Sequence record: NC_070872.1
Source of the DNA: Escherichia phage U1G
Length of the DNA: 64,000 nt
Strand: one strand, 5' to 3'
The translations under genes and the position numbers were made by a program. The notes below the pieces were generated by a model. It ran no database searches, was not told where the DNA came from, and worked only from the letters and a program-made list of their open reading frames with translations. Positions within the stretch are counted from its first letter, which is position 1, and every line of letters starts with the position of its first letter. Of this stretch, positions 33,275 to 34,071 are shown one piece after another.

Positions 33275-34071
33275 ATGTCCCTGTTCAGTAACTTGAAAGA
33301 AAAACCAAAAACGTTGAAGCTGTAAAAGACTCACTTGGTGGCAGTGGCTTCGGCGCAAAGGAATCGGATATCTACACTGGTACTGTAAAAGTAGCTTATG
33401 TAGGTAAAGCTGATTCCGGTGCAGACTGGATGCAGTTAATCATCGAAGACCTGAAAAACTCTGATGGCGTACCTGCTGGTGAGTTCCGTGCTCAGGTGTA
33501 CTTCACTTCTGGTAATGCTAAAGGCAATAAGCCTACTTACGAGAAGAACGGTAAAGAATACTTCCTGCCAGGTTATACCGTCATTAACGACATGATGCTG
33601 ATGGCTACTGGTACTGAACTGCCTGAAGCTGATTTCGAGGAGAAGATTGTTAAAGTCTACGACTTCGATGCTAAAGCAGAAGTTAATAAATCTGTCATGG
33701 TTCCTGTTGAACTGGTAGGTCAAACTGTTACCTTCGCTTTGGAAAAGGTTCTGGAATCCAAGCAGGTCAAAGGTGACAACGGTTATGTTGACTCTGGAGA
33801 AACTCGTGAAGTAAACGAGATTCAGAAAGTGTTTCACCCGGAACTGCTGGTCACAGTCGTCGAGGCTCAGGAAGCAGAGAAGGCTGAGAAAGAACTGACC
33901 CCAGAACTGGCTGTATTTTATGCAGCATGGTTAGAAAAGAACAAGGGTAAAACCCGTGATAAGACCAAGGGTTCTGCTGGTGGTAATGGCAAAGGTGGCT
34001 TGCCTCCTAAACCAAGTGCTGGCACTGGTACTGCTCCTGCTGGTGGTAAATCACTGTTCGGTAAACGTTAA
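33275..34071 (+). CDS. putative N4-type ssDNA-binding protein; N-terminal 16 codons in a different frame
   Basis: ATG 33275 frame stops at 33323; downstream frame is open from 33292; +1 A in an A5 run (33300-33311) gives ~265 aa; Gly-rich C-terminus. Confidence 0.4.

Follow-up and report, generated by a model that had tools for sequence, protein, structure and literature searches.

Within the window, by which we mean the whole stretch of 64,000 nucleotides of Escherichia phage U1G that was analysed, a gene resembling that of a single-stranded DNA-binding protein (SSB) begins in one reading frame and continues in another. We therefore asked whether this two-frame layout is a feature of the phage or of the sequence as given. 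A short frame on the plus strand (33275-33325) runs for 16 codons from ATG 33275, reads MSLFSNLKEKPKTLKL*, and ends at TAA 33323-33325. The main SSB frame, also on the plus strand (33292-34071), is open from 33292, directly behind a TAA at 33289-33291, and stops at 34069-34071. Its first ATG, GTG or TTG is ATG 33430, and since no start codon lies before it, the list of open reading frames gives only a 213-aa product. As given, the locus thus holds 16 codons and a 213-aa ORF in another frame instead of a single uninterrupted ORF of about 265 aa. The main frame lies at -1 relative to ATG 33275, so that one added base joins both frames, and both runs of five A (A5; 33300-33304 and 33307-33311) are located inside the 32-nt overlap of the short and main frames. 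When one A was added at 33300-33304, the ORF became uninterrupted and its translation was exactly 265 aa long. Codons 1-10 of the short frame are the true N-terminus of the SSB, and the remainder of that frame is out-of-frame read-through to the TAA.

An earlier note on this DNA had described an ATG 33275 frame stopping at 33323 and a main frame open from 33292 but startless until M33430, and had proposed that one extra A in the A5 runs would yield a single protein of about 265 aa. All of this was found in the sequence. The note had also called the Shine-Dalgarno sequence weak, which did not hold: reading of the sequence and alignment placed an AGGA at 33263-33266 on the plus strand, 8 nt 5' of ATG 33275 and conserved in relatives, and the signal is therefore adequate and not notably weak. 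No Shine-Dalgarno sequence was found before ATG 33430.

The window comes from an N4-like coliphage of the G7C type (Schitoviridae, Gamaleyavirus). The gene is the ortholog of N4 gp45 and an SSB gene of the ordinary N4 type; both the kind of protein and the phage group are already known. The gene spans 33275-34071 on the plus strand, with a 1-nt deletion as given and 265 aa with one A restored. The repaired protein is 98% identical to the SSB of CU10EC, 95% to that of G7C and 60% to that of N4, full length and end to end; by tblastn the CU10EC SSB was 99.1% identical to it. It matched the PHROG 743 (SSB) profile with E=6e-89 over residues 1-264 (profile positions 1-245 of 246), while sequence searches matched no Pfam family and no relative in the PDB. 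These results bear out the SSB-like identity suspected earlier, and the length ascribed there to the N4 protein was also correct, since N4 SSB (AAA86389.1, 30321-31118 of EF056009) has 265 aa, equal to the repaired ORF. An N-terminal block, GGFGAKESDIY...KVAY.GKA.SGA, is invariant from N4 to the G7C group and is encoded within 33292-33429. The C-terminal tail reads ...KSLFGKR in the window and ...KSLFGKK in N4, with KSLFGK invariant; in N4 SSB the C-terminus is the region needed for activation of late transcription (PMC4496689). With the repaired SSB as query, tblastn matched 425 phage records, 390 of them with at least 80% query coverage, and among the matches listed the alignments were mostly in one piece from residue 1 or 2, down to about 30% identity.

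The genomic setting agrees with this assignment. In CU10EC, UE-M3, G7C, PGN829.1 and N4 a single CDS of 798-804 nt, annotated as single-stranded DNA-binding protein, begins at the ATG corresponding to ATG 33275. The gene order gp43 primase, gp44 AAA ATPase, gp45 SSB and gp46 RuvC-like is the same in the window as in G7C, N4 and PGN829.1; the primase gene occupies 30276-32426, at the same position in that order. The gp46-like gene for a RuvC-type Holliday junction resolvase (34071-34625, plus strand) carries no interruption; its start codon shares bases with the SSB stop (TAATG), an overlap also seen in the relatives. N4SSB is a middle-gene product. N4 cannot replicate its DNA without this protein, which also activates the host sigma70 RNA polymerase for transcription from late promoters (PMC4496689). 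By homology, the SSB of the window is expected to act in replication and recombination and to activate late promoters for the host RNA polymerase (PMC4496689).

We then compared the site with its relatives. The A5 run at 33300-33304 on the plus strand is the site of the missing base, being A6, or AAAAGA in G7C, in every relative. The alignment reads GAAAAAACC (A6) in CU10EC, UE-M3 and pSb-1, GAAAAGACC in G7C and GAAAAACC (A5) in the window. The second A5 run (33307-33311) is identical in the window, CU10EC, UE-M3, pSb-1 and G7C. Since the relatives differ in the first run only, the missing base belongs to that run, which narrows the earlier placement of the extra A somewhere in 33300-33311. 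Related phage records were taken as matches to 33150-34150 over at least 80% of its length, which gave 57 records, 54 of them at 90-95% identity; G7C-group DNA is 92-95% identical to the window over the same interval. With a 160-nt query, all 57 records covering the site had the query length plus one base, and two of them had a further in-frame loss of 3 nt besides the additional base. PGN829.1, the relative closest to the window, matches 12.4 kb of it (22881-35300) at 97.3% identity and shows the same 1-nt gap at 33300-33304. Only four indels separate the two sequences over these 12.4 kb. One is 3 nt long and keeps the frame; at the other three the window has lost 1 nt, and two of these losses break the adjacent genes gp44 and gp45. 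The exact A5 allele had no match in the IMG/VR, metagenome and genome collections, and the A6 allele had 13 (4 in IMG/VR and 9 in the metagenome collection). The 213-aa product was not found on record, and the neighbouring gp46 was on record only in a 723-nt contig that ends short of the A5 site.

The loss in the SSB gene is not isolated. CU10EC and G7C were each compared with the whole window under affine gap costs, and indels were clustered by their net frame effect; this replaced an initial megablast indel list, which consisted mostly of paired gap artefacts. The results showed 11 sites at which both CU10EC and G7C have an extra base and no site at which both have one fewer. The sites of loss were mostly short homopolymers, and the frequency with which a homopolymer was shortened by one in the window rose with its length in the reference, from 4 of 78 5-mers (5%) through 3 of 14 6-mers (21%) to 1 of 3 7-mers (33%). 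Runs of at least 7 nt numbered one in the window and eight and five in the two relatives. By tblastn, four genes other than the SSB gene change frame at such sites: gp25-like, gp44-like, gp51-like and a gene of the gp62/63 region.

In five genes, one added base restored the exact reference length. The SSB gene (gp45), with 16 and 213 aa as given, gave 265 aa. The gp25-like (VWA) gene at 11824-12998, with its site in a G run at about 12295-12299, is split into 167 and 224 aa and gave 391 aa, as in G7C and CU10EC. The gp44-like AAA ATPase/Sak4-like gene (32483-33234, plus strand), split into 133 and 139 aa, gave the 250 aa of the reference; its site at 32817-32822 is G5 in the window, G6 in CU10EC and GGGGAG in G7C and PGN829.1. 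The gene for a gp51-like virion structural protein (48175-50138, minus strand, site 49906), split into 84 and 571 aa at a C4 that is C5 in relatives, gave 654 aa. The endolysin gene (60460-61094, minus strand, site 61006) has 143 aa as given and lacks a T (CCCC versus CCTCC), and it gave 211 aa, as in G7C gp61. At the overlap of the gp62 holin gene and gp63 (61084-61657, site at about 61326-61330), where the window has T4 in place of T5, one added base restored the reference length only approximately. Further single-base losses relative to relatives, at 117, 7292, 22222, 30215, 35567-35572 and 36360 fall in apparently non-coding or unassigned stretches. The stretch 35300-37300, between the replication module and the vRNAP gene, was the most indel-rich and divergent part of the window relative to CU10EC and G7C, and in CU10EC a tRNA is annotated in the corresponding part.

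These observations bear directly on the nature of the two-frame layout. The SSB gene carries a deletion relative to all relatives, one base restores its ORF, and one-base losses of the same type recur across the genome. Since all relatives have the extra base and at least five other conserved genes show the same type of loss, the layout points to a sequence error and not to recoding. Directional loss that depends on run length is a known signature of homopolymer under-calling. The losses here are directional and scale with run length, and the inactivation of so many genes is implausible; for these reasons we hold the missing A to be a sequence error. Three traits expected of a homopolymer error were found: the indel lies in a homopolymer whose length differs in the relatives (A5 versus A6), several unrelated conserved genes are each mended by one base, and the bias is directional and dependent on run length, with 11 losses against no gains. 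A precedent exists in 454 assemblies of N4-like (Vibrio) phages, in which apparent homopolymer frameshifts were fixed by Sanger data (PMC3670811). Two findings count against a dropped base. The change at 61006 in the endolysin gene (CCTCC to CCCC) does not lie in a pure homopolymer, and the exact wild-type protein would also result if tRNA-Lys slipped by -1 on A_AAA at 33301-33304.

Taken together, we consider it very probable that the apparent frameshift stems from one A dropped during base calling or assembly in an otherwise ordinary SSB gene, and we would not class the two-frame layout as a real feature. The loss would then have arisen in sequencing and not in the phage. The first A run (33300-33304) would be A6 in the phage, with one A dropped in the record, and this dropout would be one of about a dozen in the window. 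The real phage would most likely make one 265-aa chain from ATG 33275, MSLFSNLKEKTKNVEAVK....

It is unlikely that the frameshift is a real mutation, present for example in a variant that is defective or hitch-hikes, or in a dead genome of metagenomic origin. The sequence as given does read A5, and homopolymers are also true mutational hotspots. In such a phage the SSB would be absent, supplied in trans by a co-infecting wild type, or made in small amounts when tRNA-Lys spontaneously slips by -1: a P-site slip at 33301-33304 should recreate the wild-type ...KEKTKNVE..., and a real deletion would therefore not be an absolute null. Such slippage should be rare where there is neither a tandem slippery heptamer nor a stimulator, and the SSB is presumably needed in large amounts. 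As N4SSB is essential for replication and late transcription, a null allele is unexpected in a propagating phage. More importantly, a real deletion would mean that six conserved genes, including those of the virion protein, the endolysin and the essential SSB, had all been inactivated at once, and a phage deprived at the same time of SSB, virion protein, endolysin and three further conserved genes would fail to propagate. It would also have to account for an A5 allele shared with no other public sequence in the collections searched and for shared discrepancies that are all losses (11 of 11), at a rate scaling with run length as base-calling errors do. A related proposal is that the A5 run and the other losses reflect genuine heterogeneity of homopolymer length in the phage population, for example through slippage of the N4-type DNA polymerase. 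Essential genes such as that of the SSB would then be kept working by -1 slippage of tRNA-Lys or by complementation between co-infecting genomes, and the consequence, if true, would be stochastic variation of gene dosage in the Schitoviridae; we regard this as highly improbable.

Two other readings accept the sequence as given and assign the layout a role in expression. According to one, the true protein is the 213 aa from M33430, with the sequence before it acting as a leader or small uORF. M33430 is indeed the first canonical start of the main frame, but it has no Shine-Dalgarno sequence before it, it is annotated as the start in none of CU10EC, UE-M3, G7C, PGN829.1 and N4, and alignments to the relatives and to PHROG 743 begin at residue 1. 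The N-terminal block that is invariant between N4 and the G7C group is encoded in the main frame by the 46 codons before M33430, which is therefore not the real start. A start or re-initiation at M33430 was accordingly rejected, as it lacks a Shine-Dalgarno sequence and would lose conserved in-frame upstream residues; we consider it extremely improbable. The other reading, in which SSB dosage is tuned by transcriptional slippage or by programmed -1 frameshifting of ribosomes, has next to no probability. It can draw on the two A5 runs lying exactly within the 32-nt frame overlap, and N4-like phages are rich in homopolymers, with polymerase slippage having been speculated for them (PMC3670811). 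Against it, the 0 frame contains no X_XXY_YYZ heptamer; its codons are GAA AAA CCA AAA ACG, so that only single-tRNA slippage on A_AAA is possible. There is no Shine-Dalgarno-like stimulator upstream (no GGAG or AGGA in 33275-33300), and the 96 nt from 33305 to 33400 fold at -17.9 kcal/mol compared with a shuffle mean of -19.4 (z=+0.50). The two-frame layout occurs in none of the 57 relatives, and in G7C the run itself is interrupted by a G. A programmed -1 frameshift was thus rejected for want of a tandem slippery heptamer, a stimulator and conservation. Typical sites at which RNA polymerases slip appreciably have at least 7-9 nt, and A5 is shorter than that; transcriptional slippage was rejected because the runs are just 5 nt long.

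With a dropped base as the preferred explanation, the biological weight of the locus is small, as the product is a standard N4-type SSB. The practical point is that the window has about a dozen one-base dropouts, by which at least six conserved genes are split. Other findings there of frameshifts, split genes or short ORFs therefore need checking against relatives before they are interpreted, and annotation of the genome should mend or flag the dropout sites. If the deletions were real, the phage would have a remarkable multi-defective genome, but nothing here points in that direction.

Split genes were also seen in two other settings. The DNA polymerase gene of the window (24628-28047) is in two pieces, with pol-N at 24628-26442, an HNH endonuclease ORF at 26439-27095 and pol-C at about 27352-28047. 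It is annotated likewise in PGN829.1, and gp39 is unsplit in G7C and CU10EC; this looks like the insertion of a homing endonuclease into an essential polymerase. In Shigella phage pSb-1 (RefSeq NC_023589, 625-1421), the SSB is annotated as two CDSs, gp92 and gp93, because of a 1-nt gap (AAG-CGACT) that lies elsewhere in the gene than the site in the window. The split SSB of pSb-1 is an independent case of the same kind of record defect in the same genus.

Finally, we set the locus beside known systems. With N4 SSB, the repaired SSB of the window shares the length of 265 aa, the GGFGAKESDIY block, the KSLFGK tail and the position between gp44 and gp46; unlike the N4 gene, that of the window as given loses its frame after codon 10 through a 1-nt deletion. 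The SSB genes of the G7C group (Gamaleyavirus: G7C, CU10EC, UE-M3, PGN829.1, IME11 and others) have the same start codon, Shine-Dalgarno sequence and overlap with gp46, and each is one uninterrupted CDS with GAAAAAACC or GAAAAGACC, where the window has GAAAAACC. Programmed -1 sites, such as A_AAA_AAG in dnaX and the G/GT site of phage tail chaperones, resemble the window in having an A-rich stretch in the overlap of two frames. The window differs from them in lacking a tandem heptamer, a stimulatory structure or Shine-Dalgarno sequence, and conservation, and the product of its joined frames is the normal protein and not an alternative one. The homopolymer errors in phage records, as in the 454-sequenced N4-like Vibrio phages and in Shigella phage pSb-1, have in common with the window a conserved gene frameshifted at a short homopolymer, and in both such records and the window several genes per genome are affected by directional losses that depend on run length.
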